This document shows, piece after piece, positions 1 to 31,306 of a stretch of 61,213 nt of DNA. Position numbers and translations under genes: made by a program. The notes beneath the pieces were generated by a model that saw only the letters and a program-made list of their open reading frames with translations, was not told where the DNA came from and ran no database searches. How positions within the stretch are numbered: the first letter of the stretch is position 1; every line of letters begins with the position of its first letter. The stretch spans positions 1 to 61,213 of the forward strand of contig JAHJST010000005.1 of NCBI GenBank assembly GCA_018829905.1, written 5' to 3'. The DNA comes from Patescibacteria group bacterium. Lineage in GTDB: Bacteria; Patescibacteriota; Minisyncoccia; RBG-13-40-8-A.

Positions 1-339
1 AATTGATAAATAACCAGTATATTTATGATTGGGTAGTGTTTTTAATTTAAAAACATCTTTAATTAAATTAAAATATGATTTTTCTAATTTGCCCCATCTT
101 TGATTAAATTCTTTAACTTTTTTATCTAAAGTTTCTTTTTTATTCTCATAAGCCCTATTAACATATTTATTTATTTCTTTCTTTATATCCTTATCTTTTT
201 TATCTATTACCTTTTTCAGTTCTGGATTGGGATTCAAAACACATCCTGAAAAATCTAACCCACCTTGTTTTAAATCAAGAAAAATATTAATCATATCCTT
301 GTCAAGTTTTTTATTCAATTTAAAACTAACTTTTTTCAT
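1..339 (-). CDS. hypothetical protein, N-terminal 113 codons only (ORF continues past the left edge)
   Basis: ATG at 339-337 with an open frame to nt 1 (MKKVSFKLNKKLDKDMINIFLDLKQGGLDF...). Lys/Asp-rich, no motif I recognise. Absent from the supplied track because no stop lies in the window. Confidence 0.35.
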   Translation of the reverse strand, partial: MKKVSFKLNKKLDKDMINIFLDLKQGGLDFSGCVLNPNPELKKVIDKKDKDIKKEINKYVNRAYENKKETLDKKVKEFNQRWGKLEKSYFNLIKDVFKLKTLPNHKYTGYLSI

Positions 340-386
340 AAAATAATTTAAATTCTATTTTAATTATAATACTAAAAAAAGAAATA

Positions 387-419
387 AAATAGGGCCCTAT
401 TTAAAAATAGGGCCCTATT
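387..419 (-). terminator. two tandem GC-cored palindromes ending the peptide/rSAM/TyrRS-like operon
   Basis: AAATAGGGCCCTATTT (387-402) is a perfect 16-nt palindrome, repeated as AATAGGGCCCTATT (406-419). Flanks are T/A-rich. It lies 8 nt past the stop at 427 and could work in both directions. Confidence 0.5.
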
Positions 420-426: not shown

Positions 427-1206
427 TTACAAAATATTTTTTTCTATCTCTTTCGCAAAATGAATAACATTCTCTGGAATCTCACAAATATCTTTTTTAA
501 TCTTCTCTAGAGAATCAGAAAGATAAATACAATTGTTTTCACTATTTCCCATTTTTTTACCATCCTTCCCAAATAAATGAGGAATCAAAAGTCCAACTTC
601 TATGGGCCTACAATGATTCTCTTGTAGGCTGCGAGAAAGCAATACAATAAATTCTTGGTCTTCTCCTACAATCTCTATGTCTGTTTCGAATGCAATTGAA
701 TCATATCCTCCTATTAAAAAATATATTAAACGAGATAATGGCAAAATCTTTTCTGAGCTTAAATCCGTTTTTCTAGAAATATACCTCCATAAAATCCTAG
801 TATCACAATAAGAAGCTATCGATATCATTTTATCTAATCCAATTTTCTCTATCCATTCTGTTTGGAAGACAATTCTAACGGAATCCATGTCTAAAAATCT
901 ACCTATCTGCTTTTTAAAAGAACGCCTAATTTTTTTCTTGTCAATAATTATTCCATTTAAGCTGGCTGCAAAATCTGCTACTACAATATCGACAATCCCA
1001 CCAACATACTGTAATTGTTTGGCTATACAAAACAACAATCCATGTCCTATATGCAAACGGCAATCATTAGGAGTAATTCCGATTTTAACTCTAAATTTAT
1101 AACCACGCAATGCTTTGTTTAATAGGTCTACCAATTCAACTTTTTCAATAACTTTAACGTTCATCCAAAGTAAATACTGTAAAATATTGTCTATCTTTTG
1201 CTGCAT
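427..1206 (-). CDS. TyrRS-like class Ic aminoacyl-tRNA-synthetase catalytic-core paralog lacking the anticodon-binding domain (259 aa)
   Basis: HIGH motif is literally present (CRLHIGHG) and there is a KMSKS-like loop (GKKMGNS). Blocks VADFAASLN, YFLIGGYD and VGEDQEF align by eye to archaeal-type TyrRS. The protein ends 37 aa after the KMSKS loop. I place the start at ATG 1206 because GGAGGGG lies 5-6 nt upstream; the track start at 1215 is GTG. Confidence 0.7.
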   Translation of the reverse strand: MQQKIDNILQYLLWMNVKVIEKVELVDLLNKALRGYKFRVKIGITPNDCRLHIGHGLLFCIAKQLQYVGGIVDIVVADFAASLNGIIIDKKKIRRSFKKQIGRFLDMDSVRIVFQTEWIEKIGLDKMISIASYCDTRILWRYISRKTDLSSEKILPLSRLIYFLIGGYDSIAFETDIEIVGEDQEFIVLLSRSLQENHCRPIEVGLLIPHLFGKDGKKMGNSENNCIYLSDSLEKIKKDICEIPENVIHFAKEIEKNIL

Positions 1207-1211: not shown

Positions 1212-2624
1212 TCACCCCTCCTCAGATTCATATCTATAAAGATCATTAATCATCCATTTGAGAGTTTCCTTGGCGTGTATACAAAAAATATCATCTAAAG
1301 CAAGAATGCTACCATGTCGAAAATCAGCTCGAGCAGGACAACCGCCACCACAGATACCTAAAACAATACAATCTAAACACTGAGGCATTGTAAGCGGTGA
1401 ACGTTTTGCCCACCCAATAAAATCATTGTTTGTATAAGGTGAGAATTTTGAGTCAGGAATGGAAAAAAACTTCTTACTTAGAATATATGCTTGACACATT
1501 CCAACTTCGCCAGACGGAAGAAAAACAACTTGTCTTCCACAACCACCACAATCATAAGGATAAATTTTTTTATCCACAAAAGAATCTATCTTACGCATCA
1601 TTCTATTTTCATGTATTCCATTTTCTCTCAAAAATTCAAAACATCTAATCATTTCTTTTGTGGCAATCTCTGCATATTCAGAAGAAGAAATTATTCTCTC
1701 TGCACTATCCATTAATAGATTAAGTCCTATTCCTTTTGGTTCAAACTTCTCTATTAGCCATTGAACGTGCTTCAATAAATTTTTTACACTGCTTGGTGTT
1801 ATGGTTATAGACAAACTAAACTCAACACCAACAGATTTTAAAGTTTCACAACCTGTTCTTGTCTTCTTAAATGATCCATTGCCACCAGGAAAGCATCGAT
1901 ATTCATCATTGACTTTAGGCATACCATCTACAGATATACCAACTAAAACATTATAGTCTTTCATAAAAGAAGCAATGTTTCTATCAATCAATGTTCCGTT
2001 TGTAATAACACTTATCTCTAAATCTTCTGGTAATAACTTTTTCTTTTTCAGGATATGCATATGCTTAATCGCCAAACAGAATGCTTCTTTGTTCAATAAT
2101 GGCTCTCCACCATAAAGAATAACTGTTTTATTTTTTGAAACAGATTCAGAAGTCCATTTAGCAAAAAAATTAAGCGATTGTCTTACAACACCAGAAGACA
2201 TAAAAGAAAAATTATATTTCGTATCAATATCTTGTCTAACAAAACAGTATCGACATCTTAAATTACAAGCATCTGTCAAAACCAAATATGCCATATTGAT
2301 TACTGGATTTCTTAAATAGTTTTTTTGATAACCATTAAGCTCTTTGCCTTCATTACACGAAAGTGGTACAAGCATTTTAAACTCTATTAGTCTTTCTACA
2401 AGGGAGAAGAAAGATTTTTTCTCAGAAAAATCCAATTCTTTTTGCATAATTATATAACTAATATTTTTTCCGGTTTTAAACTCAGAAACTAATTCGAGCG
2501 CTCTCGCAGAAAGAAAAACTGTTTCAATCGTAAGAGAATGGAATAAAGCTATATATTCTTTCTCTTTTAAAATGTGTAAAAATCTAGAAAATCTTAAGGG
2601 CAGGTTAATAATTTCTTTAATCAT
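1212..2624 (-). CDS. radical SAM / SPASM-domain peptide-modifying enzyme (470 aa)
   Basis: CX3CX2C triad in LTDACNLRCRYCF. The C-terminus has auxiliary-cluster cysteines (CGGCGRQ...MCQA) and the SPASM signature CLDCIVLGICGGGC (CX2CX5CX3C). An approx 110-aa N-terminal extension precedes the rSAM core. GGAG lies 8 nt upstream of the ATG. Confidence 0.85.
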   Translation of the reverse strand: MIKEIINLPLRFSRFLHILKEKEYIALFHSLTIETVFLSARALELVSEFKTGKNISYIIMQKELDFSEKKSFFSLVERLIEFKMLVPLSCNEGKELNGYQKNYLRNPVINMAYLVLTDACNLRCRYCFVRQDIDTKYNFSFMSSGVVRQSLNFFAKWTSESVSKNKTVILYGGEPLLNKEAFCLAIKHMHILKKKKLLPEDLEISVITNGTLIDRNIASFMKDYNVLVGISVDGMPKVNDEYRCFPGGNGSFKKTRTGCETLKSVGVEFSLSITITPSSVKNLLKHVQWLIEKFEPKGIGLNLLMDSAERIISSSEYAEIATKEMIRCFEFLRENGIHENRMMRKIDSFVDKKIYPYDCGGCGRQVVFLPSGEVGMCQAYILSKKFFSIPDSKFSPYTNNDFIGWAKRSPLTMPQCLDCIVLGICGGGCPARADFRHGSILALDDIFCIHAKETLKWMINDLYRYESEEG

Positions 2625-2638: not shown

Positions 2639-2670
2639 AAAAAAATTTGGGGGGATTAAGTCCCCCCAGT
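2639..2670 (-). terminator. intrinsic terminator/attenuator hairpin between the peptide gene and the rSAM gene
   Basis: Minus strand reads GGGGGG-ACTTAAT-CCCCCC followed by AAATTTTTTT, which runs straight into the rSAM ribosome-binding site (AAGGAG). Confidence 0.55.
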
Positions 2671-2687: not shown

Positions 2688-2852
2688 TCAATAATAGTCA
2701 TCACACTTGCAAGGACAGGGGCTCCTACAAACCCTACTATCACCACCGCTTAAAAGCTCCTGTTGAGAAGGAATATTTCCTCGAATTTTCTCTCTGTTCT
2801 TCTTGGATGATGTTGACCATTCAATCACTAATTTGGTATCTTTTTTCTTCAT
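2688..2852 (-). CDS. 54-aa Cys-rich candidate precursor peptide (not in the supplied ORF track)
   Basis: Hand translation: MKKKDTKLVIEWSTSSKKNREKIRGNIPSQQELLSGGDSRVCRSPCPCKCDDYY, stop TGA. GGAG lies 6 nt upstream of the ATG. It is the first gene after a consensus-like promoter and sits directly upstream of the rSAM/SPASM gene. Confidence 0.65.
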   Translation of the reverse strand: MKKKDTKLVIEWSTSSKKNREKIRGNIPSQQELLSGGDSRVCRSPCPCKCDDYY

Positions 2853-2990
2853 TTTTTACTCCATTATCACCTATCTTATTGTATAAATTTGTCTAAATAG
2901 ACACAAAGATAGAATCTATATCAATATTCACTGAAAATCAGCAAATTAAATTATAAAAGAACACTAAAAGAACGTTTAACACACATTATT

Positions 2991-3019
2991 AATATACTGC
3001 TTTTAAAATCCCTTGTCAA
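2991..3019 (-). promoter_or_regulatory. sigma70-type promoter of the peptide operon
   Basis: Minus strand TTGACA (3019-3014), N17, TATATT (2996-2991). This predicts an approx 130-nt 5' UTR before the peptide ATG. Confidence 0.55.
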
Positions 3020-3022
3020 GTT

Positions 3023-5287
3023 TTAATCAACTATATACAAAGAATTAATAAATTTATCATATTCTTCTTTAAAATTAGGATCTATTTGAACTGCTTTATC
3101 AGCAGCTTGTCTTGCTTTATCAAATTGCCCCATATGAGCATAAGCAGCTGCTAATGAAGCATACATTTGAGCGCTTTCTGGTTCTTGTTGCACACCTAAT
3201 TCATATAATCTAGCAACCATATCATATCTCTGTGCTTTTTCAAATATTTTAACCATTCTTAATAATTCAGTTGTATTTGTTTCAAAATCCTTCCATCCTA
3301 ATTCTAATGCCTTATTAAGCGCTTCAAGCGCTTCTTCGTTTTTATCAGCAGCACTAGCAGAAACAGCTGTAAACCACCAAGACAATGAAACTTCTGGATT
3401 TAATTCTGCAGCTGTTTTAAAACTATTATATGATTCTTCATATTCTTTTATTGACATTTGTGCTTGGCCTAATTCATACCAAATCCTAGGATTTCTTTTA
3501 TTTAATTCTAATGCCTTATTAATAGAAGCTAATGCTTGATTAGCTGCTTCTTGCCCATCTTTTTCAATTAATAAAATATACATTCTTCCAACGTATAGAT
3601 ATGGAACAGTGTCTAAAGGAAATCTTTCAATGTTTTTACTTACTATTTTAATTGAAAAATATAAAAGGCTTGGATCAAAATCTCCTTGTTTTTGTTTCAT
3701 TGTTTCTGCAAGCTGAATTGCAAATGTAGCTAGTTTGTGCCTTATTTCATAAGCTCCTTCTGGAACTGGATTACATATAAATTCATTATTTTCTCTTTTA
3801 CAATTTAAAGCTTCTTGGTATTTATCAACTGCTTTTTGAGCATTACCTGCTCTTCCTGCTAATATTGCTCTTGTTGTACTAAAATTAGCTTGAGATGATC
3901 TAATATTTGTTTGAAAAATTAAAATTACAGCTAGGATTAATAAAATAACAATTAAGAATGTTGATGGATATTTTTTTTCTCTTAATGGCTCTATCTTTTT
4001 ATTATTTGTTTTTAAATAATAAACATATGCTAAAACCATAAAGAATAAAAAGTAATTTACAAATGTATCGAAAATAAAAAGATTTTGTATAAAGTATGCA
4101 ATAATCATTGCTGAAAAAACACCAAAAGTAATTTTACCAATTCTTTTAGATTTGAATTTTTTAATCAAAACAATAAACATTGATACAAATATTGATAAAT
4201 AGCTTAATAAACCAACAGCACCCATTGTTGATAAAGCATTTAAAGGAACATTATGAGCTCTGTCCCAAATAGTTTCTGATCCAACATGAGTAAAATGACG
4301 AGCATCAAAATGCTTCATATGAAGAACTGAAAAATTCTCAGGACCCCAACCAAAGATTGGTCTTTCTTTCCATCCTTCAATTGCGCTTGTCCATGACCAA
4401 ATTCTAGTCTGAAGAGTATCTGAATCTAAAGAAAGGCTTGTTATTCTGTCTAGCCAACTAATGTTTTTTACCCATGTACTATTTTTACCAATAAAGGCAA
4501 AAGTAAAAAAAAGAACAAAAATTAAAATTGCAATAATTAAAGATATTTTTAATTTTTTATTCTTTGAAGCAAAAACAAAAAATAGAGCTAAAAGAATTAT
4601 TGTTATAAAAAAAGACAATATTGCTCCCCTAACAGCTGTCATTAATAAAACTGGAATTCCTAAAATTAAAACAATAGAATAAAATCCTTTTTCTCTAATA
4701 TCTGTTTGTTTTTTTAATAAAAACCAAAGAGCTAAATAAAGTATAAAAAGAAGGTAACCAGCAAATAACGCAGGATTACCTATTGTTCCAATTACCCTTT
4801 CTCCGTGTTGCCAACCAACAAAAAAACTACCAAGTCTTAATCTTTGTCCATAAGCAAATAAAATTGAAAGAAAACCAACAAAAGTTGTAATTTTTAATAT
4901 TTTATTCCAGTCTAATTTTATTCTAATAATACTAATCAGAATTACAAAATATACCCAAAAGTGTATAAAAGAAAAAATACCACCCATTCTTTCTATGCTT
5001 CCCCACATACTACTAAAAAAATTAACTCCAATTAATCCAGTAAAAATATATAAACCAGTATAAGCAGTAAAACTAATTAAAATTAAATTCCATTTTGGCC
5101 TATATCTTTTATCAATAATTATTAAAAGAATATAGAAAACAGCCATTAATTCAACCAATGATCTAAATAAAATCATTTTACCAAAATGAAATGGTGATAA
5201 ATGTTGAGAAAAAACTACTAATGGCAAAAACAAAGAAACATATACTCCCCAACGAAGTATTTTATTCAAATTTTCAGAAGTTATCAT
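3023..5287 (-). CDS. O-antigen ligase/polymerase-like (Wzy_C) polytopic membrane protein with C-terminal TPR repeats (754 aa)
   Basis: More than 10 TM helices. Motifs GTIGNPALFAGYL and RPIFGWGPENF...H. The C-terminal approx 250 aa are TPR-like (ALELNKRNPRIWYELGQAQ, YASLAAAYAHMGQFDKARQAADKAVQIDPNF). Start set at ATG 5287 (MITSENL...); the longer track ORF reads through a GC-rich RNA element. Confidence 0.8.
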   Translation of the reverse strand: MITSENLNKILRWGVYVSLFLPLVVFSQHLSPFHFGKMILFRSLVELMAVFYILLIIIDKRYRPKWNLILISFTAYTGLYIFTGLIGVNFFSSMWGSIERMGGIFSFIHFWVYFVILISIIRIKLDWNKILKITTFVGFLSILFAYGQRLRLGSFFVGWQHGERVIGTIGNPALFAGYLLFILYLALWFLLKKQTDIREKGFYSIVLILGIPVLLMTAVRGAILSFFITIILLALFFVFASKNKKLKISLIIAILIFVLFFTFAFIGKNSTWVKNISWLDRITSLSLDSDTLQTRIWSWTSAIEGWKERPIFGWGPENFSVLHMKHFDARHFTHVGSETIWDRAHNVPLNALSTMGAVGLLSYLSIFVSMFIVLIKKFKSKRIGKITFGVFSAMIIAYFIQNLFIFDTFVNYFLFFMVLAYVYYLKTNNKKIEPLREKKYPSTFLIVILLILAVILIFQTNIRSSQANFSTTRAILAGRAGNAQKAVDKYQEALNCKRENNEFICNPVPEGAYEIRHKLATFAIQLAETMKQKQGDFDPSLLYFSIKIVSKNIERFPLDTVPYLYVGRMYILLIEKDGQEAANQALASINKALELNKRNPRIWYELGQAQMSIKEYEESYNSFKTAAELNPEVSLSWWFTAVSASAADKNEEALEALNKALELGWKDFETNTTELLRMVKIFEKAQRYDMVARLYELGVQQEPESAQMYASLAAAYAHMGQFDKARQAADKAVQIDPNFKEEYDKFINSLYIVD

Positions 5288-5294
5288 AAGATAA

Positions 5295-5300
5295 ATTATA
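5295..5300 (-). promoter_or_regulatory. -10 box TATAAT placed 7 nt upstream of the Wzy_C/TPR ATG (leaderless-type arrangement)
   Basis: Minus strand reads TATAAT-TTATCTT-ATG. No SD is present, and it lies just downstream of the ncRNA terminator. Confidence 0.35.
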
Positions 5301-5321
5301 TAGTATATATAAATCTTGTGC

Positions 5322-5536
5322 AAATAAAAGGAGGGGCCCATTATTAGACCCCTCAGGAAACCCACGGCGTGGATATCGCCAGACCTATCGCTGGCTTTTG
5401 GCCAAATCCGTTTTGCGAAGAAAGGACCTAAGGGCCTGTGCGCATAGCACTCCAAGGTGCTCAGATAATGGCACGATCCACACATCCTATTGGCAGGAAA
5501 GAAGAACCTGCCGACTAATCGCAATTTCAGCGTACT
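5322..5536 (-). ncRNA. unclassified structured GC-rich RNA (approx 215 nt)
   Basis: My hand count gives 105/200 G+C for 5331-5530, against very AT-rich flanks. It has its own promoter upstream and ends in GAGGGG...CCCCUC + UUUUAUUU. Several local hairpins are present (GGCAGG-N9-CCUGCC, AGCAC-CUUGGA-GUGCU, GCCAG-N8-CUGGC), plus a possible long-range GUGUGGAU/AUCCACGC helix. Confidence 0.6.
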
Positions 5537-9660: not shown

Positions 9661-11031
9661 ATGCGAATTAAAAAATTTATTCTATTATTAGGCGATATAA
9701 TCATTTTATATGCCTCTTTAGCAATTGCTCTAACTATTAGATATAGAGAGTTTGATTTAGGAACTTTTCAAAATCATATACTCCCCTTTTCAATTGTTTA
9801 TTTTGTTTGGTTGATTGTGTTTTTTATACACAATTTATATGATTTAGACACTGCTAAAAATAATATTGAGTTTTCTTCTTCTTTAATAAGAGGAATAATT
9901 ATTGGTGGTTTAATTTCAATTGCATTTTTCTATTTAATTCCTGGTTTTGCAATAAATGAATTAACACCAAAAACAAATCTTTTATTAACAATAATAATCT
10001 TTGTCTTTTTATTCTATGGATGGAGATTATTTTTTAATTTCTTAATTGGCGCATTAAAAATAAGAATTAATTTAGCTATTGTTGGATATAATCCACAAGC
10101 AATTGAATTAGCAAAAGAAATAATTAAAAATCCTCAATTGGGATATAGGCTAAAATTAATTGTTAAAAGTGATGATGAACCAATAAAAGATAGATTAGAA
10201 GGAGTAAAAATCATTCAAGGAATAAAAAATCTAAAAGGAATATTAGAACAAGAAAATATATCTACAGCTATTATTGCTCCTGAAGTATATAAATATCCAG
10301 AATTAATTCAAAACTTATTTGAATGTATAAGACATAAAATAGATTTTGTAAATTTATCTGAATTCTATGAAAACGTAACAAGAAAAATTCCTTTAACAGT
10401 TATTAATCAAATTTGGTTTTTAGAAAACATTTCTCAAAGAGATAGAAATGTTTATGAATTAGCTAAAAGATATTTTGATTTTATTTCTGCTTTTATTCTT
10501 TTAATTTGTTCTCTCCCCTTTTGGATTATTATTGCAATAATGGTTAAATTTAGTTCTAATGGTTCTGTATTTTATTCTCAAAAAAGAGTAGGACGAGGAG
10601 GAAAAACATTTAAATTAACTAAATTTAGATCAATGGTTATGGATGCTGAAAAATATGGCCCTAAAATGGCCAAGAAAAACGATAAAAGAGTTACTAAATT
10701 TGGTAGATTTATGAGAAAAACAAGAATGGACGAGCTTCCTCAATTATGGAACGTAATAAAAGGACAAATGAGCTTTGTTGGTCCAAGAGCAGAAAGACCA
10801 GAATTTCATCAAGAATTAAAAGAAAAAATACCTTTTTATCAAGAAAGATATTTAATTAGACCTGGTTTGTCTGGATGGGCACAAATAAAGCATGGATATA
10901 GCTCAACAGTAGAAGATAATTTTGAAAAAGTTCAATATGATCTTTATTATATTAAAAATAGATCATTTATTTTAGACACATCAATTATTTTAAAAACAAT
11001 TAATATTATCCTCAGAGGAGGAGGAAGATAA
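9661..11031 (+). CDS. initiating polyprenyl-phosphate glycosylphosphotransferase (bacterial sugar transferase family, WbaP-like architecture)
   Basis: N-terminal TM bundle plus a central domain. The C-terminal catalytic block reads KFRSMVMDAE...DELPQLWNVIKGQMSFVGPRAERPEF. Confidence 0.85.
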   Translation: MRIKKFILLLGDIIILYASLAIALTIRYREFDLGTFQNHILPFSIVYFVWLIVFFIHNLYDLDTAKNNIEFSSSLIRGIIIGGLISIAFFYLIPGFAINELTPKTNLLLTIIIFVFLFYGWRLFFNFLIGALKIRINLAIVGYNPQAIELAKEIIKNPQLGYRLKLIVKSDDEPIKDRLEGVKIIQGIKNLKGILEQENISTAIIAPEVYKYPELIQNLFECIRHKIDFVNLSEFYENVTRKIPLTVINQIWFLENISQRDRNVYELAKRYFDFISAFILLICSLPFWIIIAIMVKFSSNGSVFYSQKRVGRGGKTFKLTKFRSMVMDAEKYGPKMAKKNDKRVTKFGRFMRKTRMDELPQLWNVIKGQMSFVGPRAERPEFHQELKEKIPFYQERYLIRPGLSGWAQIKHGYSSTVEDNFEKVQYDLYYIKNRSFILDTSIILKTINIILRGGGR

Positions 11032-11041
11032 AATAAAAATT

Positions 11042-11911
11042 ATGAAAAAATCATTATCTGTTGTGGTTCCTGTCCACAACGAAGAAAAAGCGATTGAAAA
11101 TACAATCAATGATCTACAAACAGAATTAGATAAACTTAATTTAGAATACGAAATTATTGTAATTAATGACGCCTCTACAGATAAAACAAAAGAAATTTTA
11201 GAAAATATTCCCAATATAAAAATAATTAATCATACGCAAAACAAAGGATATGGCGCTTCATTAAAAAATGGAATTAAAAATGCAAAATTTGATTTTATAC
11301 TATTTTTTGATGCCGACGGACAACACAAACCAATCTATATTAAGGAAATGATAAAATATATGGATAATTTTGACATGATAAGTGGAGCAAGAATTGGATA
11401 CAAGGGACCAATTATCCGACAACCAGGAAAAAAAGTATTGCAATGGCTAGCCAATTATCTTAGTCAACAAAAAATTCCAGATTTAAATTGTGGATTAAGA
11501 ATTGTTAAAAAAATAGAAATATTAAAATTCACACATCTTCTTTGTGATGGATTTTCTTTTTCTACAACATCTTCTCTGCTTTTTTTGTCTGAAGGACTAT
11601 CTGTTAAATATGTGCCAATCAGAATAAACAAAAGAGAGGGAAAAAGCAAAGTAAGACCAAAGCACGCATTTGATACATTTATATTTATATTACGAGTTAT
11701 TGTCTTAACGTCTCCCCTTAGAATCTTTCTACCAATTAGTATTTTGCTTTTTCTAATAAGCGGAACACTATTAATACAAAATATAATCTACAAAAATATT
11801 GGCGATATAACCATTTTATTATTTATTTCTGCCATATTAATTTTCTTTTTTGGATTGTTGGCTGATCAAATTTCTGCAATTCGTAAAGAGATAAAAAATA
11901 AAAACAATTAA
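11042..11911 (+). CDS. GT2-family glycosyltransferase with C-terminal TM helices (polyprenyl-phosphate sugar synthase-like)
   Basis: LSVVVPVHNEEKAI, VINDASTDKT, FFDADGQH (DXD), and two C-terminal TM helices. Confidence 0.8.
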   Translation: MKKSLSVVVPVHNEEKAIENTINDLQTELDKLNLEYEIIVINDASTDKTKEILENIPNIKIINHTQNKGYGASLKNGIKNAKFDFILFFDADGQHKPIYIKEMIKYMDNFDMISGARIGYKGPIIRQPGKKVLQWLANYLSQQKIPDLNCGLRIVKKIEILKFTHLLCDGFSFSTTSSLLFLSEGLSVKYVPIRINKREGKSKVRPKHAFDTFIFILRVIVLTSPLRIFLPISILLFLISGTLLIQNIIYKNIGDITILLFISAILIFFFGLLADQISAIRKEIKNKNN

Positions 11912-11913
11912 AA

Positions 11914-13332
11914 ATGAAAGTTCTTCTAATTTATCCACATTATAGTAAAACAACAAATACATTTTTTAGATTTTTAAAAAATAAAATACCACCATTGGGG
12001 CTTTTATACATTGGCTCTGCGCTCAAAGAAAAAAGCCATGAAGTAAAAATAATTGATGCCGAAGAAAAAAAAATAGATTTAGAATCGTTAGGCAAATTAA
12101 CAAAAAATTATAATCCTCAAATTATAGGAATTTCAACTACAACTCCGGTTTTTAAAAGAGCACGAGAAACGGCAACATATCTAAAAAAAATCCTTCCAAA
12201 TGTACCTATTATTTTTGGTGGACCACATTTGGCATCGTTCCCAAAAATAAGTTTAGAATTTAAAGAGATAGACTATGGAATAATTGGGGAAGGCGAAATC
12301 ACTATTTGTGAATTAGTTGATGCAATAGAAAAAAAACAAGATCCGGGAAAAATTAAAGGAATAGTATTCCGTAAAAACAATGAAATAATTCAAACTGAAT
12401 CTAGAGAAATGATTCAAGATCTTAATAAAATATCTTTGCCAGCATGGAGTTTAATCGATATTAGAAAATACCAAGATATTATGTCAAAAAGAGATGCATT
12501 TGCTACGATGATTTCAAGTAGAGGTTGTCCATATAACTGTTTCTGGTGCGATCCAGAAGGAAGATTCGGAAAAAAATTTAGAGCAAGATCAGCAGACAAT
12601 ATGATCAAAGAAATTGACTTGCTTTACAATAAATACGGAATAAGAGAAATACTCTTTTACGACGATACTTTTACGGTAGACAGACAAAGAGTAATAGATT
12701 TTTGCAATACGATAATAAAACAAAAATTCGATTTAATTTGGGAATGTCGCACAAGAGTAAACCTAGTAGACGAAAAATTAATAAAATTAATGGCGAAAGC
12801 AGGATGCTATAGAATTAGATTTGGAATAGAGTCTGGCAATGAAAAAATATTAAAATTTATCAGAAAAGGAATTACCAAGGAACAAGCCAGAAATGCTATA
12901 GGTTGGTGCAAAAAATATAAAATCGAAATTTTTACTTATTTTATGCTAGGATTACCAACCGAAACGGAAAAAACAATGAAAGAAACCATAAAATTTGCAA
13001 TAGAACTAAATCCCGACTATACCACATTTAGTCCAACCATAGCCTTTAATAGAGGAAATGATCTTTTTAAATGGGCCGCCGAAAAAGGATTTATAGAAAA
13101 AGATTATTGGGAAAGATTTGTAAGAGGAGAAAATATAAGTCCATACCCACAACTCAAAACAGATAAATTAAAAGAAGATACTGTTCGTTCTTATTCTAAA
13201 ATGGCTTATAGAAAATTTTATTTACGACCATCTTTTGTCTTAAAAAAACTATCAAATTATCGTAATATAAAAAATCTAAAAAAATATTTATTAATTGGAA
13301 TAGCTTTTTTGTTTGGCAAAATAGAAGCATAA
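11914..13332 (+). CDS. B12-binding-domain radical SAM protein (paralog 1)
   Basis: N-terminal KVLLIYPHY...PPLGLLYIGSAL...IIFGGPH module, and the rSAM triad SSRGCPYNCFWC. Confidence 0.8.
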   Translation: MKVLLIYPHYSKTTNTFFRFLKNKIPPLGLLYIGSALKEKSHEVKIIDAEEKKIDLESLGKLTKNYNPQIIGISTTTPVFKRARETATYLKKILPNVPIIFGGPHLASFPKISLEFKEIDYGIIGEGEITICELVDAIEKKQDPGKIKGIVFRKNNEIIQTESREMIQDLNKISLPAWSLIDIRKYQDIMSKRDAFATMISSRGCPYNCFWCDPEGRFGKKFRARSADNMIKEIDLLYNKYGIREILFYDDTFTVDRQRVIDFCNTIIKQKFDLIWECRTRVNLVDEKLIKLMAKAGCYRIRFGIESGNEKILKFIRKGITKEQARNAIGWCKKYKIEIFTYFMLGLPTETEKTMKETIKFAIELNPDYTTFSPTIAFNRGNDLFKWAAEKGFIEKDYWERFVRGENISPYPQLKTDKLKEDTVRSYSKMAYRKFYLRPSFVLKKLSNYRNIKNLKKYLLIGIAFLFGKIEA

Positions 13333-13336
13333 AAAT

Positions 13337-14749
13337 ATGAAAATTTATTTATTAAATCCATCTTTTATAAAAAATTATGTTAGATCTTCAAGATGTACGT
13401 GGATACCTGTTGCAGGAAGTAATTGGTATCCAATTTTTTTAGCCTATGCCACTGGATGCTTAGAAAAAGATGGTTATAAAGTAAAACTAGTTGATGCATT
13501 GGTCGATGGAATCCCACATGAAAAAATTATAAAAGATATAAAAAATTTCTCTCCTAAAATCACAGTTATTTATACTTCAATAGACAGCATGGAAAACGAA
13601 ATTAAATTATCTGAAATGATTAAAAAAGAAATTAATACATTCATTGTTTTTGTCGGACCATGGTGTGCAATAGATCCAGAAGGAATATTAAAAAAATCTA
13701 AATCAATTGATGGCGTAATTCGAAGAGAATTTGAACTTCCATTACTTAATTTAACAAAAACAATTGAAAGAAATGCCGATCTAAGCGAAGTAAAAGAACT
13801 AACATGGCAAAAAAATAATAAAATAATTAAAAATCCAGACGGAGAATTTATAAATGAAAAAGGATTAAATGAATTACCATTTGTTACAAATATTTATAAA
13901 AAATACTTAAAAATGAAAAATTACCGCCAAACCAGTCTGAAATATCCTTTTGTTGATATGTTTACCGCACGTGGATGTGCCTGGGGTAAATGCACCTTTT
14001 GCCTATGGCCAAACACAATTCACAAAGGAGCACATTATCGTACAAGAACAATAGAAAACATCATAGAAGAATTGAAATCAATAAAAAAAGAATTACCAGA
14101 AATTAAAGAAATATTTTTTCAAGATGATATGTTGCCCAGAATTAGAATTCGTCAAATTGCAGAAGCAATTATAAAAAACAATCTAAAAATTACATGGTCT
14201 GGATACGCTAAGGCCGACCTAGACCTAGAAACAATGAAATTAGCAAAAAAATCTGGATGTAAATTTTTACATATCGGCTACGAATCAGGAATTCAAGAAA
14301 TACTCAATAATATCAACAAGGGAGAAATAGTTTCCGGAATGGAAGAATTTACAAAAAATGCCAAAAAATCAAGAATTAATATTCATGGAGATTTTATCTT
14401 TGGTTTGCCCGGTGAAACAATTGAAACCATTAAAAAAACAATAAAATGGGCTAAAAAATTAAATATTTCTGACTATCAATTCGTAGTGCCCCAACCACAC
14501 AAATCAACTCCTTTTTATAATTGGTTAAAATCAAATGATTATTTAACAAAAGATGAAAAAATTAATTATCCAAATTTATCTATAAAGGATCTCGAATACT
14601 GGAGATTTAGGGCCTATAAAAAAATTTATTTTAGCTTTTCGTATCTATCCAAAAGATTGTGGGAAGCTATTAAAAACCCGGCTGAAGGGACTAGATTACT
14701 AAAGGTTGCTTGGCGTGGACTACCCAAATTATTTAAAAAACCAAAATGA
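13337..14749 (+). CDS. B12-binding-domain radical SAM protein (paralog 2) with CX4CX2C spacing
   Basis: Same overall architecture as paralog 1. The cluster motif reads TARGCAWGKCTFC. Confidence 0.7.
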   Translation: MKIYLLNPSFIKNYVRSSRCTWIPVAGSNWYPIFLAYATGCLEKDGYKVKLVDALVDGIPHEKIIKDIKNFSPKITVIYTSIDSMENEIKLSEMIKKEINTFIVFVGPWCAIDPEGILKKSKSIDGVIRREFELPLLNLTKTIERNADLSEVKELTWQKNNKIIKNPDGEFINEKGLNELPFVTNIYKKYLKMKNYRQTSLKYPFVDMFTARGCAWGKCTFCLWPNTIHKGAHYRTRTIENIIEELKSIKKELPEIKEIFFQDDMLPRIRIRQIAEAIIKNNLKITWSGYAKADLDLETMKLAKKSGCKFLHIGYESGIQEILNNINKGEIVSGMEEFTKNAKKSRINIHGDFIFGLPGETIETIKKTIKWAKKLNISDYQFVVPQPHKSTPFYNWLKSNDYLTKDEKINYPNLSIKDLEYWRFRAYKKIYFSFSYLSKRLWEAIKNPAEGTRLLKVAWRGLPKLFKKPK

Positions 14750-15936
14750 TTCCTTTTGATTTTTTTAATAAAAACTTTATTTGTCCAGATTGCCTTAGTC
14801 GTTTTAAAAAGGAAATATCTTTAAAACTTTCAAAACAAGACTATTATTGTTCAAACTGTCAAAAAAAATATCCTATTAAAAAAATAGTCTATATTTTAAA
14901 AAATAAATGCAACCCCAAAAAATGTAAATTTGAATGCATAAAATCATGCAAAAAAACAGCAATAAAAAAAACCATTATTGAAGAAAAAGGACACTTTATG
15001 CTTAATGGAATAATAAAAAACATAAAAAACCCTGGAATAATTATTAAAGATAAATGTAATAATTGCCGTAAATGTATTAAAACTTGTCCGTTTAATGCGC
15101 TTATCGCAATTAACATACCAACATTCCTTGTAAACGAATATTCTAAAAATGAAGACACCACTAGAGATAGTAAAAAAAATAATTCGGAGATTTTTAATCT
15201 TCAATTACGAACACCAATAAAAGAAAACGAAATAAGACCAGCCTCTTTTTTGCTTTACAAAATTATTTCTCGTAAAATTAAAAGTAAAGAAGAAAATAAA
15301 ATAACCATAGATAATGGCAGTGGATCAAATTTGGCTAAATCATTTATACAAAATGAAAACATTCTTTCATTTGATATTCATACAGATCATAATGCATTCT
15401 ATCCGCTTGATTTGTTGGTAAATAGTGAACATTTACCAATAAAAAAAGAATGTGTTAATTCCTTTATTTCAGTTAATGTAGTCGAACATGTCACAAATCC
15501 ACTTAAATACCTTTTAGAAATGAACAGAACACTAAAAAATAATGGCGAATTAATAATTGCCGTTCCCACACCTTGGTGGCATCTTAGTAAATTACTTTCC
15601 CTGCATCACCACTTAAATTATATGATTCATATTATTAAAGGTCCTTTTAATTTTCTAAAAAATCCATTCAAAAATTTCAACATCTTTTGGAGTCATGAAA
15701 AAGACTGTAATCATGAAAACACAAAAGAAACATCTACTCTTATATCAGAAATTAAAAAATTTAACATTATAAAGTGGGAAAAATTATTTAATGATTCCGG
15801 ATTTATTATAAAAGAAAGAACTGGTGCTGGTAATATTTTCTCCAACAATATATTTGCTGGAAAAATAACAAGAAAATTAGGCAATTCTAAAAAATGTCCT
15901 ATTTTCTTAGTTTATGTTTTAAAAAAAAGAATTTAA
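14746..15936 (+). CDS. fusion protein: Zn-ribbon + 2x[4Fe-4S] ferredoxin-like segment + class I methyltransferase
   Basis: CPDC...CSNC ribbon; CNPKKCKFECIKSC and CNNCRKCIKTCP cysteine clusters; C-terminal VNVVEHVTNPLKYLLEMNRTLKNNGELIIAVP (Methyltransf_11-like). Overlaps the previous gene by 4 nt. Confidence 0.6.
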   Translation: MIPFDFFNKNFICPDCLSRFKKEISLKLSKQDYYCSNCQKKYPIKKIVYILKNKCNPKKCKFECIKSCKKTAIKKTIIEEKGHFMLNGIIKNIKNPGIIIKDKCNNCRKCIKTCPFNALIAINIPTFLVNEYSKNEDTTRDSKKNNSEIFNLQLRTPIKENEIRPASFLLYKIISRKIKSKEENKITIDNGSGSNLAKSFIQNENILSFDIHTDHNAFYPLDLLVNSEHLPIKKECVNSFISVNVVEHVTNPLKYLLEMNRTLKNNGELIIAVPTPWWHLSKLLSLHHHLNYMIHIIKGPFNFLKNPFKNFNIFWSHEKDCNHENTKETSTLISEIKKFNIIKWEKLFNDSGFIIKERTGAGNIFSNNIFAGKITRKLGNSKKCPIFLVYVLKKRI

Positions 15937-15952
15937 ATTAATAACATGCTTT

Positions 15953-16714
15953 ATGATTAATAAAAAAATATTTCAACAAGAACTAGAAGACTGGGATAAA
16001 AATGCCCAATTTTATGCTGAAAAAAATACTCTTCCTTATTATCAAATAATTAATGATAAATTAATAAATTTTTATAAAATAAGTAAAAATGAAAAAATTC
16101 TTGAAGCCGGTGGCGGTGCCATTTTAACAACAGGCAATAATATTACCGTAATTGATTTTTCTAAAAAAATGATTGAATTAGCTAAAAAATTAAATCCATA
16201 TGGAAAATTTATTATAAGTAGCGTACATCAAATACCCACTGATGATAAACAATTTGATGTCATTATCGCCAATGACTTATTTCACCATGTTAAGGCGCAG
16301 GGGCTACTTGAGGCAACAGCAACAGAATTCAAAAGGGTGCTTAAAAACGATGGAAGACTTTGTGTATTTGAAAGATCATCAAGTCTAGTTCCTAAATTAT
16401 TTTTTTATCTAAGAAAACCATTCAAATCAATAATAAAAAAACATCAATGTTCCAGTAGAAACGAAGTTAGTTTTTCTAATAAAGACCTTAAACAAATATT
16501 GCAATGTGGCTTTAAAATTTATGAAAAAAAATACATATTTTCTCTGCCATTCCAAATATTGGCAGTTGCTATCAATGTAATACAATATCTCTTTGGATAT
16601 AAAATAACTTATCGACTTCAGGTAAAAACAAAAAAGATTGCAGCATTTTTAGAAAATAAATTTAATTATAAACATATTTGCGCTCAACAAATTTTTATAT
16701 TAAAAAAGAAATGA
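15953..16714 (+). CDS. class I SAM-dependent methyltransferase
   Basis: ILEAGGGAIL (motif I) and DVIIANDLFHHV. Confidence 0.7.
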   Translation: MINKKIFQQELEDWDKNAQFYAEKNTLPYYQIINDKLINFYKISKNEKILEAGGGAILTTGNNITVIDFSKKMIELAKKLNPYGKFIISSVHQIPTDDKQFDVIIANDLFHHVKAQGLLEATATEFKRVLKNDGRLCVFERSSSLVPKLFFYLRKPFKSIIKKHQCSSRNEVSFSNKDLKQILQCGFKIYEKKYIFSLPFQILAVAINVIQYLFGYKITYRLQVKTKKIAAFLENKFNYKHICAQQIFILKKK

Positions 16715-17691
16715 ACTATCCAAGCGTAACAATCCTAATACCAATTAAAAATGTAGCAAAATACATCAAAGAATGTCTTGATGCATTAATTAATCAAAAT
16801 TATCCACATGACAAATACGAAATTTGGCTTTTAGACAACAACTCTAATGATGGAACGTTAAAAATTGTAGCAAACTACCCTAAAAACAAGGTTAGGGTTA
16901 TTCAAACTGGAATTGATTCTCCGCCAATAAAATACAATAAAATTTTACCATCTATAAAAAACGAAATTATCGGACTAGTAGATGGAGATGCAAATGTCGA
17001 CAAAGAGTGGCTCAAAAAAACCGTTGAACAACTCAAAGATCCCAAAACAGCAGGAGCAACTGGAGTAATTTTAACAGCAAATAGCAAAAAGCTTATTCCA
17101 AGAATAATCGGGTATGAACTACAAGACAGATATGAAAAAATGCCAAAAGAGATAAAAAGAGCGGCTACAATGCACATTGTCTACAAGAAAAAAATAATTG
17201 AAGAGATTGGTGGATTTAACGAAAAGCTAAAAACCGGATACGATGCAGAAATTGGGCACAGAATAAATAATGCTGGATACAAAATAATCTTTGTTAAAGA
17301 TGCAAAGGTTTGGCACAATCATCGTGAAACACTAAAAGCTTTTTTTAAACAACAGTATGAATATGGAAAATTCGCTGTTATAAGATATTTAAAATTACCA
17401 AAAATGCTCAAGGGCGATGAAGTCTCTTCGTTTTGGATGATATCTCAACCATTGTTTTATTTAAGTTCAATTATTTTACTTATTTTCTGGTTTTTTTATA
17501 AATTCTCATGGTACTTAATACTTATACCAATATTAATTTTATTTATTTCCTATATATTTTCTACTCTTCGCTTAACAATAAAATACAAGGATCTTACAGC
17601 AATTTCTTTATTTATTATTTATTTAATAAGACCAATTGGTTGGACAGTGGGAGCAATTTCTGCACTCTTTTCGCTTTTTAGGTCTATTTAA
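16711..17691 (+). CDS. GT2-family glycosyltransferase with C-terminal TM helices
   Basis: VTILIPIKNVAKYIKECLDALINQNYP, LLDNNSNDGT, VDGDANV. Start at ATG 16711 (ATGA overlap with the upstream stop). Confidence 0.8.
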   Translation: MNYPSVTILIPIKNVAKYIKECLDALINQNYPHDKYEIWLLDNNSNDGTLKIVANYPKNKVRVIQTGIDSPPIKYNKILPSIKNEIIGLVDGDANVDKEWLKKTVEQLKDPKTAGATGVILTANSKKLIPRIIGYELQDRYEKMPKEIKRAATMHIVYKKKIIEEIGGFNEKLKTGYDAEIGHRINNAGYKIIFVKDAKVWHNHRETLKAFFKQQYEYGKFAVIRYLKLPKMLKGDEVSSFWMISQPLFYLSSIILLIFWFFYKFSWYLILIPILILFISYIFSTLRLTIKYKDLTAISLFIIYLIRPIGWTVGAISALFSLFRSI

Positions 17692-17694
17692 AAT

Positions 17695-18882
17695 ATGAAA
17701 ATTTGTATCTGCGTTAATGGTCGTGCACATGAAGGAGGAGTAACTTCTTATATTAATTCAGTATGTGATGGTTTAAGATTTTTAAACAGCCAAATAGATG
17801 TAATGACACTGTTTGGAATTTCACAATATAGAGAAACCAAAAATTCAATCGTTGAAAAAACCGACAAACTTCTTCTTGGCTCCCCCATAAAAACCATTAT
17901 TCTCTATTTTTTTAGTAAAATTATTATTGGATTACGACTAGTCTTTTATTATCCCATAAAAAGATGGAATATTATTTTTGCTCAAGATACTTCAATTGTA
18001 GGCGCCAGCAGATTACTTAGATTTTTATTTAAAATTCCATTAATACTAGTTGTTCATGGTTCTGTTGTGCTAGCCCTCGTTCATCAAAAAAAGATCAAAA
18101 AGAATGGATTTATTTGGAAATTAATGATAAATGAAGAAAAAAAAGCATACCGCAAAGCAAAATCAATAATCGCCAATAGCGATCATACAAAAAATCATAT
18201 CTTATCATTATGTCCAGAAATTAAAAATATCGCAGTAGTTCGTAATTTAGTTAACGAAAATATATTCTATAACGACACAAAAGCCAAAAAAGATGGACGA
18301 GAAAAATTTAAAATATCAACAGATACTTTTGTCGTTTTTTTTTCTGGCAGACTAACGGAGTTAAAAGGACCAATCTATTTACTTAAGTCTTTCGAAAAAA
18401 TTGCCAATGACAAAAAAATTATTCTTATTTATGCTGGAGATGGTCCAGAAAAAATTAATCTCGAAAAATATATTCAAGAAAAAAAATTGAATAAACAAGT
18501 AAAAATATTAGGCAATATTCCTTATGAACATATCGGAAAAATCTATAACATAGCAGATCTTCTTGTTGTGCCATCAATTACCATTGGCGAAGTACAAGAA
18601 CCACTGGGGATCGTTGCCCTAGAAGGAATGGCTATAGGAATTCCGGTTATTGCCTTTAGCGTTGGCGGGCTTAAAGAAATTATAAAAGATGGATATAATG
18701 GAATTTTAATTCCAGAAAAGGACATAAATAAATTAGCTCAATCTATTTTGAAAATCAAAAAAAATCCAGCACTTACTCAAAAATTGATTCAAAATGGAAA
18801 AAAAGAAATTAAAAAAGAATATACTACCAGGGTAGTTGCCCAAAGACTAATAAATATATTTCAAAAAATATTATCTAAATAA
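17695..18882 (+). CDS. GT4-type (Glycos_transf_1) glycosyltransferase
   Basis: C-terminal EX7E region EPLGIVALEGMAIGIPVIAFSVGGLKEII. Confidence 0.8.
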   Translation: MKICICVNGRAHEGGVTSYINSVCDGLRFLNSQIDVMTLFGISQYRETKNSIVEKTDKLLLGSPIKTIILYFFSKIIIGLRLVFYYPIKRWNIIFAQDTSIVGASRLLRFLFKIPLILVVHGSVVLALVHQKKIKKNGFIWKLMINEEKKAYRKAKSIIANSDHTKNHILSLCPEIKNIAVVRNLVNENIFYNDTKAKKDGREKFKISTDTFVVFFSGRLTELKGPIYLLKSFEKIANDKKIILIYAGDGPEKINLEKYIQEKKLNKQVKILGNIPYEHIGKIYNIADLLVVPSITIGEVQEPLGIVALEGMAIGIPVIAFSVGGLKEIIKDGYNGILIPEKDINKLAQSILKIKKNPALTQKLIQNGKKEIKKEYTTRVVAQRLINIFQKILSK

Positions 18883-18892
18883 ATCAATTGCA

Positions 18893-19756: not shown

Positions 19757-19768
19757 TTCAAAAATTTA

Positions 19769-23064: not shown

Positions 23065-23079
23065 TTCTTGGTTATTTTT

Positions 23080-25927: not shown

Positions 25928-25948
25928 TTATACAAATAATTATAAATT

Positions 25949-26386
25949 TTATTTTATTAATTTAATAAATATCTTTCTTCTTGGTTGATACAACCGAAAA
26001 AAAAATATTTTATCTTTTACTTTTTTATAAGAAAATTTCTCAAGCATTTTTTTAATTTCTTTTGTTTTATATCTATATTTATGAGTAGAATCTTTGGCCA
26101 ATAGTCTTTTTTTTGTCCAATCTTTATCAATCTTTATATTAGCTAATTTCCCTCTTTTTAAAACTCTATAAATTTCATCAAAAAATCTCTGAGTCTCTTT
26201 TGGAAGAAAGTGTTCTATTAAATGCGAAGATTGAATTTCATCAATAGAATCATTTTCAATCGGCAAATCTAAAGCAGAAGCAATTATATCTGCATCGCTA
26301 TTAGGATCGATGTCTATACCAACAAATCCCTTCTTTTTTCTTTCTCCACAACCAATATCAAGTTTTATTACTTTGTTTTTAATCAT
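25949..26386 (-). CDS. small class I SAM-dependent methyltransferase
   Basis: KLDIGCGERKKKGFVGIDI and SSHLIEHF. Confidence 0.65.
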   Translation of the reverse strand: MIKNKVIKLDIGCGERKKKGFVGIDIDPNSDADIIASALDLPIENDSIDEIQSSHLIEHFLPKETQRFFDEIYRVLKRGKLANIKIDKDWTKKRLLAKDSTHKYRYKTKEIKKMLEKFSYKKVKDKIFFFRLYQPRRKIFIKLIK

Positions 26387-26387
26387 T

Positions 26388-28834: not shown

Positions 28835-28868
28835 GTATAATTTTTAGTTTTAACCAAAAAAATATTTT

Positions 28869-29591: not shown

Positions 29592-29592
29592 A

Positions 29593-31299: not shown

Positions 31300-31306
31300 T
31301 ATATAT

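Follow-up and report, generated by a model that had tools for sequence, protein, structure and literature searches.

A stand-alone TyrRS-like catalytic core in a radical SAM peptide operon of Patescibacteria

A 61,213-nucleotide stretch of DNA from a Patescibacteria group bacterium (contig JAHJST010000005.1 of assembly GCA_018829905.1; hereafter the window) carries on its minus strand a gene for a tyrosyl-tRNA synthetase (TyrRS) catalytic domain. The gene stands in an operon for a ribosomally made peptide that is modified after translation (RiPP), and the resemblance of its product, P0001, to TyrRS is far beyond chance. On balance, we favour the reading that this TyrRS-like protein is an enzyme of peptide tailoring that recognises a tyrosyl group, uses ATP and charges no tRNA. 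More tentatively, it may adenylate the C-terminal tyrosine of the peptide. TyrRS is among the few synthetase families without a described ATP-using paralog outside translation; here, a TyrRS core would be pared to an adenylation machine and fixed in a peptide-natural-product operon. Patescibacteria have minimal genomes and are rarely credited with tailored secondary metabolism.

A TyrRS catalytic domain in a peptide-maturation operon

P0001 matched the Pfam tRNA-synt_1b family (PF00579) with an E-value of 7.8e-29, residues 37-240 being aligned to positions 5-221 of the 292 in the profile; the C-terminal quarter of the profile is absent from the protein. The NCBIfam model for bacterial tyrS (TIGR00234) scored it at 99.4 bits, under the cutoff of 113.8, and the archaeal-type model (NF006330) at 43.2 bits with a cutoff of 220. 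The models for tryptophanyl-tRNA synthetase (TrpRS) gave 27 bits or less. Sequence matches in the PDB included the TyrRS of A. baumannii (6BQY, E=4.7e-22), T. thermophilus (1H3E, E=1.9e-18) and H. pylori (6BYQ, E=3.3e-18), and the matches to archaeal TyrRS were weaker (A. fulgidus, 2e-9; M. jannaschii, about 1e-5). An AlphaFold2 model, for which a 27-sequence alignment served as input, reached a pLDDT of 91 and a pTM of 0.90. The best Foldseek matches of this model were T. thermophilus TyrRS chains with TMq values of 0.79-0.81 (0.81 to 9SFQ), and all of the top 50 matches were TyrRS. By these comparisons, the nearest relatives are bacterial TyrZ-type TyrRS, to which the protein is 24-32% identical. 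An archaeal origin was ruled out by the E-values, the NCBIfam scores and the fold ranking, although one loop is archaeal-like. The initial annotation had aligned the protein to an archaeal-type TyrRS. The strings that it quoted (TPNDCRLHIGH, VADFAASLN, YFLIGGYDSIAFE, VGEDQEF and KMGNS) are all present verbatim, and the short loop past ADxxAxL is indeed archaeal in style, but the relationship that the alignment implied gave way to the bacterial one.

Cyclodipeptide synthases (CDPSs; AlbC family) are likewise stand-alone TyrRS/TrpRS-like Rossmann domains without an anticodon domain that act in natural-product biosynthesis. Unlike the TyrRS-like protein, which keeps the ATP motifs, CDPSs have lost HIGH, KMSKS and ATP binding and use aminoacyl-tRNAs. 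A CDPS identity was ruled out by the presence of these motifs; moreover, no CDPS Pfam match was obtained at E<=0.1 and no CDPS stood among the top 50 fold matches.

Neither an alpha-helical anticodon domain nor an S4 domain was found in the protein, whose chain stops 37 residues past KMGNS. PF22421 and PF01479 were not detected in it, though they occur in every full-length relative, and no split anticodon-domain gene adjoins the TyrRS-like gene. The annotated features, namely a retained HIGH motif, a retained KMSKS-like loop, the early chain end and the absence of an anticodon-binding domain, were therefore all borne out by Pfam and alignment, which found every C-terminal tRNA-binding module missing. 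Because the tyrS equivalog cutoff is missed, the tRNA-binding domains are absent and the amino-acid site is incomplete (see below), the protein does not appear to be a tyrosine--tRNA ligase in the functional sense, and would belong only to the PF00579 domain superfamily.

On the minus strand, the gene order is precursor, radical S-adenosylmethionine (rSAM)/SPASM enzyme, TyrRS-like protein and HExxH protein (Table 1). The pairing with an rSAM enzyme and a Cys-rich peptide, which had been noticed at the outset, is thus present. The TyrRS-like ATG lies 5 nt after the TGA stop of the rSAM gene with a GGAGG ribosome-binding site ahead, a terminator appears only past the TyrRS-like gene, and the two genes are predicted to be translationally coupled. 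The best NCBIfam models for the rSAM enzyme were FibroRumin rSAM (TIGR04136; 282 bits, under the cutoff of 400) and the PapB ranthipeptide maturase (143 bits), and the enzyme falls in a clade related to the FibroRumin maturase within the broad rSAM/SPASM family that both share. The hairpin between the precursor and rSAM genes looks like a partial terminator that would set the ratio of precursor to enzyme transcripts. A GGGGGG...CCCCCC hairpin was also observed at the equivalent place in locus L010 (about 318..345), where the rSAM enzyme is only 63% identical.

Table 1. Features of the operon and of the TyrRS-like protein, with positions in the window
Feature	Position	Strand	Description
Putative zinc peptidase, HExxH...E protein	1..339	minus	First 113 of 235 codons; cut by the window, motif outside the window
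Perfect palindromic hairpin, 14-bp stem	388..419		Bidirectional terminator-like; directly past the TyrRS-like stop codon
TyrRS-like stand-alone catalytic core	427..1206	minus	259 aa (P0001); Rossmann fold, connective peptide 1 (CP1), KMSKS loop plus 37 residues
KMSKS-type loop KMGNS	541..555	minus	Residues 218-222; sequence and family alignment; homologs have KMSKS or KMGKS
Tyrosine-pocket helix YFLIGGYD	700..723	minus	Residues 162-169; Tyr162 (Tyr169 of B. stearothermophilus TyrRS, Bst) and Asp169 (Bst Asp176) kept; Gly166 replaces Gln173
Remodelled loop ADFAASLNGIIIDKKKIR	925..978	minus	Residues 77-94; replaces the bacterial GDFTxxIGDPxGK...R segment; alignments and column statistics
HIGH motif, His52-Ile-Gly-His55	1042..1053	minus	Read from sequence; H(I/L)GH in all members with an N-terminus
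Radical SAM/SPASM peptide maturase	1212..2624	minus	470 aa; Pfam Radical_SAM E=4e-17
GC-rich hairpin and T-run	2648..2668	minus	Between precursor and rSAM genes; resembles an attenuator-type partial terminator
Precursor peptide MKKKDTKLVIEWSTSSKKNREKIRGNIPSQQELLSGG-DSRVCRSPCPCKCDDYY	2688..2852	minus	54 aa; Gly-Gly site, four Cys, Tyr-Tyr end; called as a gene in L002
Promoter-like site TTGACA-17-TATATT	2991..3019	minus	Upstream of precursor; 11/12 matches; consensus match only

The family comprises about five sequences among 15 billion proteins. A search of 5.8 billion clustered proteins returned P0001 itself (labelled in NCBI as 'hypothetical protein KJ684_01330 [Patescibacteria group bacterium]'), P0002 (53% identical, 266 aa), P0003 (44%, 276 aa) and the fragment P0004, the next matches being ordinary TyrRS of about 400 aa with about 30% identity. 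When 1.84 billion representatives were searched exhaustively with a hidden Markov model (HMM), P0001, P0003 and the fragment P0029 were the only family members recovered; double-length TyrRS pseudo-dimers came next, and then ordinary TyrRS. A metagenome scan with the family alignment gave only canonical TyrRS of 32% identity or less, a genome-collection scan with the single rSAM protein gave no match, and a protein search with the 54-aa precursor found only itself. The intact open reading frames (ORFs) of the family span 259-276 aa and conserve the catalytic motifs. Their proteins are 44-54% identical in pairs, a divergence at which synonymous sites have probably reached saturation.

The same TyrRS-like protein sequence occurs on contigs from six samples or assemblies, and the precursor, rSAM, TyrRS-like and 235-aa (HExxH) genes are found together in the window and in loci L001-L006. 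Independent copies at 44-63% identity share the rSAM - TyrRS-like - HExxH synteny. The locus of P0002 (L007) has the C-terminus of an rSAM protein upstream and the start of a 235-aa homolog downstream, and that of P0003 (L008) also has an rSAM C-terminus upstream, with the rSAM stop overlapping the TyrRS-like start codon. The locus of P0004 (L009) retains the 235-aa homolog downstream, the N-terminal half of its TyrRS-like gene being replaced by unrelated DNA. L010 holds a precursor, the 63% identical rSAM gene and the first ten TyrRS-like codons (MDNKIKFIFK, compared with MNNEIKFILK in P0003), which overlap the rSAM stop. Taken together, the TyrRS-like start falls 5 nt past the rSAM stop or overlaps it in three loci (the window, L008 and L010), the TyrRS-like gene is followed by the HExxH gene in the window, L007 and L009, and the arrangement of the three genes is fixed.

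The HExxH protein is seen at its full length of 235 aa in L003-L005 (1967..2674 in L003), and its gene adjoins 27 of 85 related rSAM loci. Its residues H142, E143, H146 and E175 do not vary among 14 homologs. Searches of Pfam, NCBIfam and the PDB, including one with a profile of 14 sequences, gave no significant relative. The invariant HExxH...E motif by itself suggests that the protein is probably the zinc peptidase of the system, from an undescribed family that partners Cys-rich rSAM RiPPs in Patescibacteria.

The rSAM family of the window is large (1079 matches at E<1e-20) and common in Patescibacteria; one further member, P0179, is 59% identical to the rSAM enzyme of the window. Peptides upstream of the rSAM gene at 80 genome-collection loci have a common leader motif and Cys-rich cores with varied C-termini (W, K, R, A and others). 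The two precursors linked to a TyrRS-like gene, those of the window and L010, have diverged leaders and an identical SPCPCKCDDYY end. A sister clade (L011-L015 and L055), with rSAM enzymes that are 45-47% identical, lacks a TyrRS-like gene in the operon; the C-termini of its peptides read SC(N/R)C(A/S/K)CSCTDGY, and an HExxH partner is present in L012, L013 and L015. In L015 (6438..9765), where the peptide ends in ...SCRCKCSCTDGY, a canonical TyrRS (399 aa, with HLSH for HIGH, and LMSKS) and a GlyRS adjoin the rSAM/HExxH pair. A special link of this TyrRS to the TyrRS-like family was ruled out, as the two proteins are 25% identical, no closer than to other TyrRS. The adjacency is probably a coincidence, and recruitment of the family from such a gene by local duplication is conceivable.

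Active-site residues kept and changed

To compare the active sites, columns at least 80% conserved in TyrRS were examined in an alignment of the five family members with 147 genuine TyrRS (340-460 aa) and the T. thermophilus and B. stearothermophilus enzymes; residues are given in Bst numbering unless stated otherwise. The Bst sequence used was identical to PDB 2TS1 over residues 1-325. The M. jannaschii TyrRS, which was included in a second alignment made with MAFFT, agreed with PDB 1J1U along its entire length (668 bits, E about 1e-200).

The family keeps Gly36, Pro39, His45, Gly47, His48, Gln59 and Gly62, then Trp126, Tyr169, Asp176, Ser177, Glu189 (the TyrZ state), Gly192, Asp194 and Gln195, and in the KMSKS region Lys230-Met, Ser234 and Asn237. 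We take these residues to cover the ligands of ATP, ribose and carboxylate as well as the hydrogen-bond network of the phenol hydroxyl, in which Asp176 would be backed by Trp126, Asn123 and Gln189. In the numbering of P0001, the phenol subsite is conserved as Asp169, Trp118, Tyr162, Glu178 and Gln115, the last at the Asn123 position, where Gln also occurs in 10% of TyrRS. Asp183 and Gln184 of P0001 are conserved across the family. The KMSKS loops of the five members read KMGNS, KMSKS, KMGKS, KMGKS and KMGNS. This pattern suggests that the ATP site is under selection.

Every member is altered at a further set of positions that are 87-100% conserved in TyrRS. Asp38, which is Asp in 99% of TyrRS, is replaced with Thr, and Gln173, which is Gln in 97%, is replaced with Gly or Ala (G/A/A/G/G in the five members). 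His63 becomes Gly, Gly70 becomes Ala and Thr73 becomes Ala or Ser. The Gly77-Asp78-Pro79 loop reads (Asn/Arg/Gln)-Gly-(Ile/Val/Tyr), about 12 residues past it are deleted, and Arg86 is Ile or Tyr. Glu166 is changed to Arg or Asp, Pro170 to Phe and Asn198 to Ile, Leu or Phe. Positions Arg/Lys151 and Arg157 are variable, and the conserved basic residues of the CP1 region are accordingly not kept. Lys151 is reportedly one of several acceptor-stem contacts that mutagenesis mapped in the Bst enzyme, and Asp78, Tyr169 and Gln173 are the alpha-ammonium ligands of bacterial TyrRS.

The MAFFT alignment reproduced the M. jannaschii equivalences that had been proposed by eye, namely Tyr32 to Lys41, His70 to Ala80, Gln155 to Gly166 and Asp158 to Asp169. 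The remodelled tyrosine pocket deduced from them stood only in part. The Lys at the position of Bst Tyr34 (M. jannaschii Tyr32) is also found in 122 of the 147 closest genuine TyrRS (83%) and in the enzymes of T. thermophilus, A. baumannii and H. pylori whose structures are solved, including those bound to tyrosine or tyrosinol, and the phenol subsite is intact. What remains of the remodelling is the replacement of the alpha-amino Gln with Gly or Ala and of Asp38 with Thr. The profile alignment that had been proposed as a check likewise found the tyrosine-binding residues intact on the phenol side and not on the alpha-amino side. A complete tyrosine site is lacking, as all five members have Gly or Ala for Gln173 (M. 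jannaschii Gln155) and Gly stands in place of Asp78. The pocket thus looks still tyrosine-shaped, with an intact phenol subsite and a loosened alpha-amino subsite.

When set beside TyrZ-type TyrRS (T. thermophilus 1H3E/1H3F, A. baumannii 6BQY/6BQZ and H. pylori 6BYQ), the protein shares the catalytic fold (TMq of about 0.8), HIGH, KMSKS, the GxDQ ribose/carboxylate ligands, the Lys at the Tyr34 position and the Asp/Trp/Tyr phenol subsite. In contrast, it lacks the anticodon and S4-like domains, the GDPxGK...R loop is replaced with a shorter one, the residues at Gln173, Asp38, Asn198 and the basic CP1 positions differ as described, the tyrS cutoff is missed and the gene lies in a RiPP operon. 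The family loop ADFxAxL(N/R)G is of archaeal length and has no bacterial GDPxGK...R segment. It resembles the short ADxxAxL-N loop of archaeal/eukaryotic-type TyrRS (M. jannaschii 1J1U), which has no Asp78 equivalent. These enzymes also share a KMSSS-like loop without the second Lys, as in two family members, and a hydrophobic residue at the Asn198 position. Nevertheless, the match to them is far weaker (E about 1e-5; the bacterial type reaches 5e-22), and the TyrRS-like protein has neither their Gln155 nor their C-terminal anticodon-binding domain.

Candidate activities of the TyrRS-like protein

What might a pocket bind that recognises a tyrosyl side chain but holds the alpha-amino group loosely? 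The mechanism that we prefer among the candidates, while holding it less likely than not, is that a class I aminoacyl-tRNA synthetase (aaRS) core has been repurposed to adenylate -Tyr-Tyr-COOH, the ancestral pocket taking the Tyr side chain and the opened alpha-amino subsite admitting the peptide. The pocket would bind the C-terminal Tyr of the rSAM-modified and probably thioether-crosslinked precursor. The alpha-nitrogen of this Tyr would be in a peptide bond, and the Gln ligand of the alpha-ammonium group would therefore be dispensable and could be replaced with Gly or Ala. ATP would then serve to turn the C-terminal carboxylate into a peptidyl-tyrosyl adenylate. Capture by an intramolecular amine would give a macrolactam, for which the conserved Lys of CKCDDYY and the new N-terminus after Gly-Gly cleavage and leader removal are candidates; alternatively, capture by ammonia or a small amine would give a C-terminal amide. 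In this scheme, we infer which substrate is bound, that it is adenylated and what becomes of the adenylate; the fold, the motifs, the missing C-terminal tRNA modules, the coupling in the operon and the Tyr-Tyr ends were observed. Under such C-terminal adenylation, a tyrosine-specific enzyme is expected in a pathway whose substrate ends in Tyr, whereas it would be a coincidence if the enzyme activated a free amino acid.

ATP-dependent adenylation of a peptide carboxylate is known from MccB of microcin C7 (the C-terminal Asn of MccA) and from lasso-peptide cyclases (an Asp/Glu side chain), with intramolecular capture following. The analogy is functional only, as these enzymes have unrelated folds (E1/ThiF-like and asparagine-synthetase-like), and no homology of the TyrRS-like protein to them was detected. 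Adenylation of a C-terminal Tyr would add a new fold to the few enzymes that adenylate peptide carboxylates and a new RiPP route to a macrolactam or amide. The TyrRS-like protein would then be the first enzyme derived from TyrRS to have a catalytic role outside translation, and a compact tool, addressable by sequence, for ligating or cyclising peptides at the C-terminus. The chance that the chemistry is new for the TyrRS fold is realistic, although on the lower side.

Several points weigh against adenylation of the peptide C-terminus. The precursors linked to the family number only two. The C-terminal Tyr predates the enzyme, being present in the sister clade that has no TyrRS-like gene, and it may instead be conserved for the rSAM step, because the last Cys lies at -5 from the terminal Tyr in both clades. 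The missing Asp78 equivalent is the native archaeal state too, so that the sole alpha-ammonium ligand lost relative to both types of TyrRS is Gln173 (Gln155 in M. jannaschii); Tyr162 and Gln184 stay. The KMGNS loop of two members has no second Lys. Two of roughly six copies are eroded (1..180 in L009 and 1..130 in L095), their N-terminal part being replaced by unrelated DNA. The amino-acid pocket of TyrRS is deep, and a peptide might not reach into it. To our knowledge, no aaRS paralog adenylates a peptide C-terminus, and all characterised paralogs known to us that bear ATP motifs (GluQRS, MshC, PoxA, amino acid:carrier-protein ligases and MetRS-like hydrazine synthetases) activate a free amino acid.

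This pattern is what an enzyme would follow that forms Tyr-AMP from free L-tyrosine (or D-Tyr or 4-hydroxyphenyl-lactate) and moves the tyrosyl moiety to a nucleophile of the peptide in place of tRNA, namely the N-terminal amine, Lys, Ser/Thr or Cys. We regard ligation of free tyrosine as the chief alternative, if an unlikely one, even though precedent favours it with MshC, GluQRS, PoxA and the amino acid:carrier-protein ligases (PMC9437257) as well as the MetRS-like hydrazine synthetases (PMC13149037). The protein retains the phenol subsite, Tyr162 and Gln184, TyrZ-type enzymes can bind Tyr with a Lys at the Tyr34 position, and archaeal TyrRS binds free Tyr though it has no Asp78 ligand. However, all five members have lost the Gln that bacterial and archaeal enzymes alike use as an alpha-ammonium ligand, the nearly invariant Asp38 is Thr, and it would be left unexplained why a tyrosine-specific enzyme stands beside peptides that already end in Tyr-Tyr. 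If free tyrosine is ligated to the peptide, the protein would be the first TyrRS-type amino acid:peptide ligase. GluQRS/YadB, the CysRS-like MshC and the MetRS-like hydrazine-synthetase domains share with it a class I core, ATP motifs and the transfer of an adenylate to a non-canonical acceptor, and MshC and the MetRS-like enzymes act in metabolite biosynthesis (PMC9437257; PMC13149037). Unlike it, they arose from other aaRS families, retain the alpha-amino ligands and activate a free amino acid, and none is tied to a ribosomal peptide.

Where a biosynthetic cluster holds an extra aaRS copy, this is commonly a gene for self-resistance, and the tyrosine-shaped pocket and the tight coupling to the rSAM gene would also suit a non-catalytic binder. 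Such a binder might be an immunity decoy or sponge that takes up the mature peptide with its Tyr end, for instance where TyrRS is the target of the product, or a chaperone or recognition subunit by which the C-terminal tail is offered to the rSAM enzyme. We hold such a role to be improbable, as a resistance copy must charge tRNA and this protein has no tRNA-binding domains, a pure binder needs none of HIGH, KMSKS, Asp183 and Gln184, which are conserved across homologs of 44-63% identity, and related rSAM clades work without the protein. An activity still directed at RNA, in which a minimal TyrRS charges tRNATyr or another RNA without anticodon recognition or with a partner in trans and might supply Tyr-tRNA to the pathway, seems more improbable still. 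The ATP motifs are intact, and GluQRS is a truncated class I core that still modifies tRNA (PMC9437257). Charging of tRNA is disfavoured, though, because all C-terminal tRNA-binding modules are gone; the basic CP1 residues (the Arg/Lys151 equivalent and Arg157) are lost as well, and the operon and its neighbourhood have no tRNA gene, tRNA-using enzyme or split anticodon-domain gene. The B. stearothermophilus TyrRS, when cut after the catalytic domain, reportedly makes Tyr-AMP and does not bind tRNA. Specifically, no tRNA-using enzyme (PEARL, Fem-like or CDPS) was found in the TyrRS-like operon, and no tRNA gene, Rfam family or second TyrRS in the 61-kb window; two candidates for the canonical TyrRS of the host, P0014 and P0007, were traced to other assemblies. 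The slimmest chance is that of a decaying TyrRS duplicate that serves no function. It would agree with the tiny family, the erosion of L009 and L095, the insertion sequence (IS) in the rSAM gene of L001 and the transposases near the cluster in L003. Decay would not be expected to leave intact ORFs of constant length with conserved catalytic motifs at the pairwise identities given above, a constant position and translational coupling, a confident AlphaFold2 model and the same protein sequence in six samples or assemblies.

A peptide-tailoring role that uses ATP and recognises a tyrosyl group remains the reading that we favour for the TyrRS-like protein. A 2022 review of aaRS duplications gives no paralog function for TyrRS (PMC9437257). 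Our literature search found nothing on TyrRS-like or aaRS-like RiPP enzymes, on the TyrRS-like family or on the 'FibroRumin' rSAM system, and the proposal that this is a new example of an aaRS core with a non-translational job met no described precedent there.

Neighbouring loci and the rest of the window

Some observations concern relatives of the TyrRS-like family and of its operon. P0030 (952 aa) and P0032 (834 aa) are metagenomic double-length bacterial-type TyrRS with an intact first and a degenerate second copy. In the second copies, HIGH is kept in one and DQ and KMSKS are lost. The proteins resemble the pseudo-dimer architecture of trypanosomatids. Both outscore ordinary TyrRS on the family profile, and it is the degenerate second copy that resembles the profile. 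The cluster is unstable: in L001 (7032..9799), an rve-family transposase splits the rSAM gene in one sample, and the two eroded TyrRS-like copies have been described above.

L003 extends beyond the left end of the window. There (2847..4718), directly past the HExxH gene, lies a 68-aa peptide that ends in ...TTGTYDDIDGFDRF, followed by an ATP-grasp maturase of the MvdC/MvdD type (NCBIfam TIGR04185, 204 bits), a protein with DUF6624 and a pair of transposase genes. The ATP-grasp stretch would be a second, graspetide-like RiPP cluster. L004 and L005 have a different gene at this position.

Directly upstream of the RiPP operon, the minus strand of the window (3023..5524) encodes an 833-aa protein (754 aa as called in L001 and L002) with an O-antigen-ligase (Wzy_C) membrane domain and C-terminal TPR repeats. 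A glycan-biosynthesis locus of about 38 kb follows at 9661..47848. It contains five B12-binding radical SAM enzymes (11914, 13337, 21598, 27470 and 37047), many class I methyltransferases and GT2/GT4 glycosyltransferases, as well as an asparagine synthase, a DegT aminotransferase, an LPG_synthase_TM protein and a weakly FemAB-like protein (44634..45572). Its gene content points to a surface-glycan pathway that is unusually rich in methylation for a small-genome bacterium. Farther along, two minus-strand regions (48409..53510 and 57164..60259) hold large ORFs of 441 and 1217 aa with no Pfam match and a 1031-aa protein with Lamin-tail and right-handed beta-helix domains. Between them lie genes for an extracytoplasmic function (ECF)-type sigma factor (54611..55165) and a DUF5667 protein, and these genes together may form a surface-protein module.

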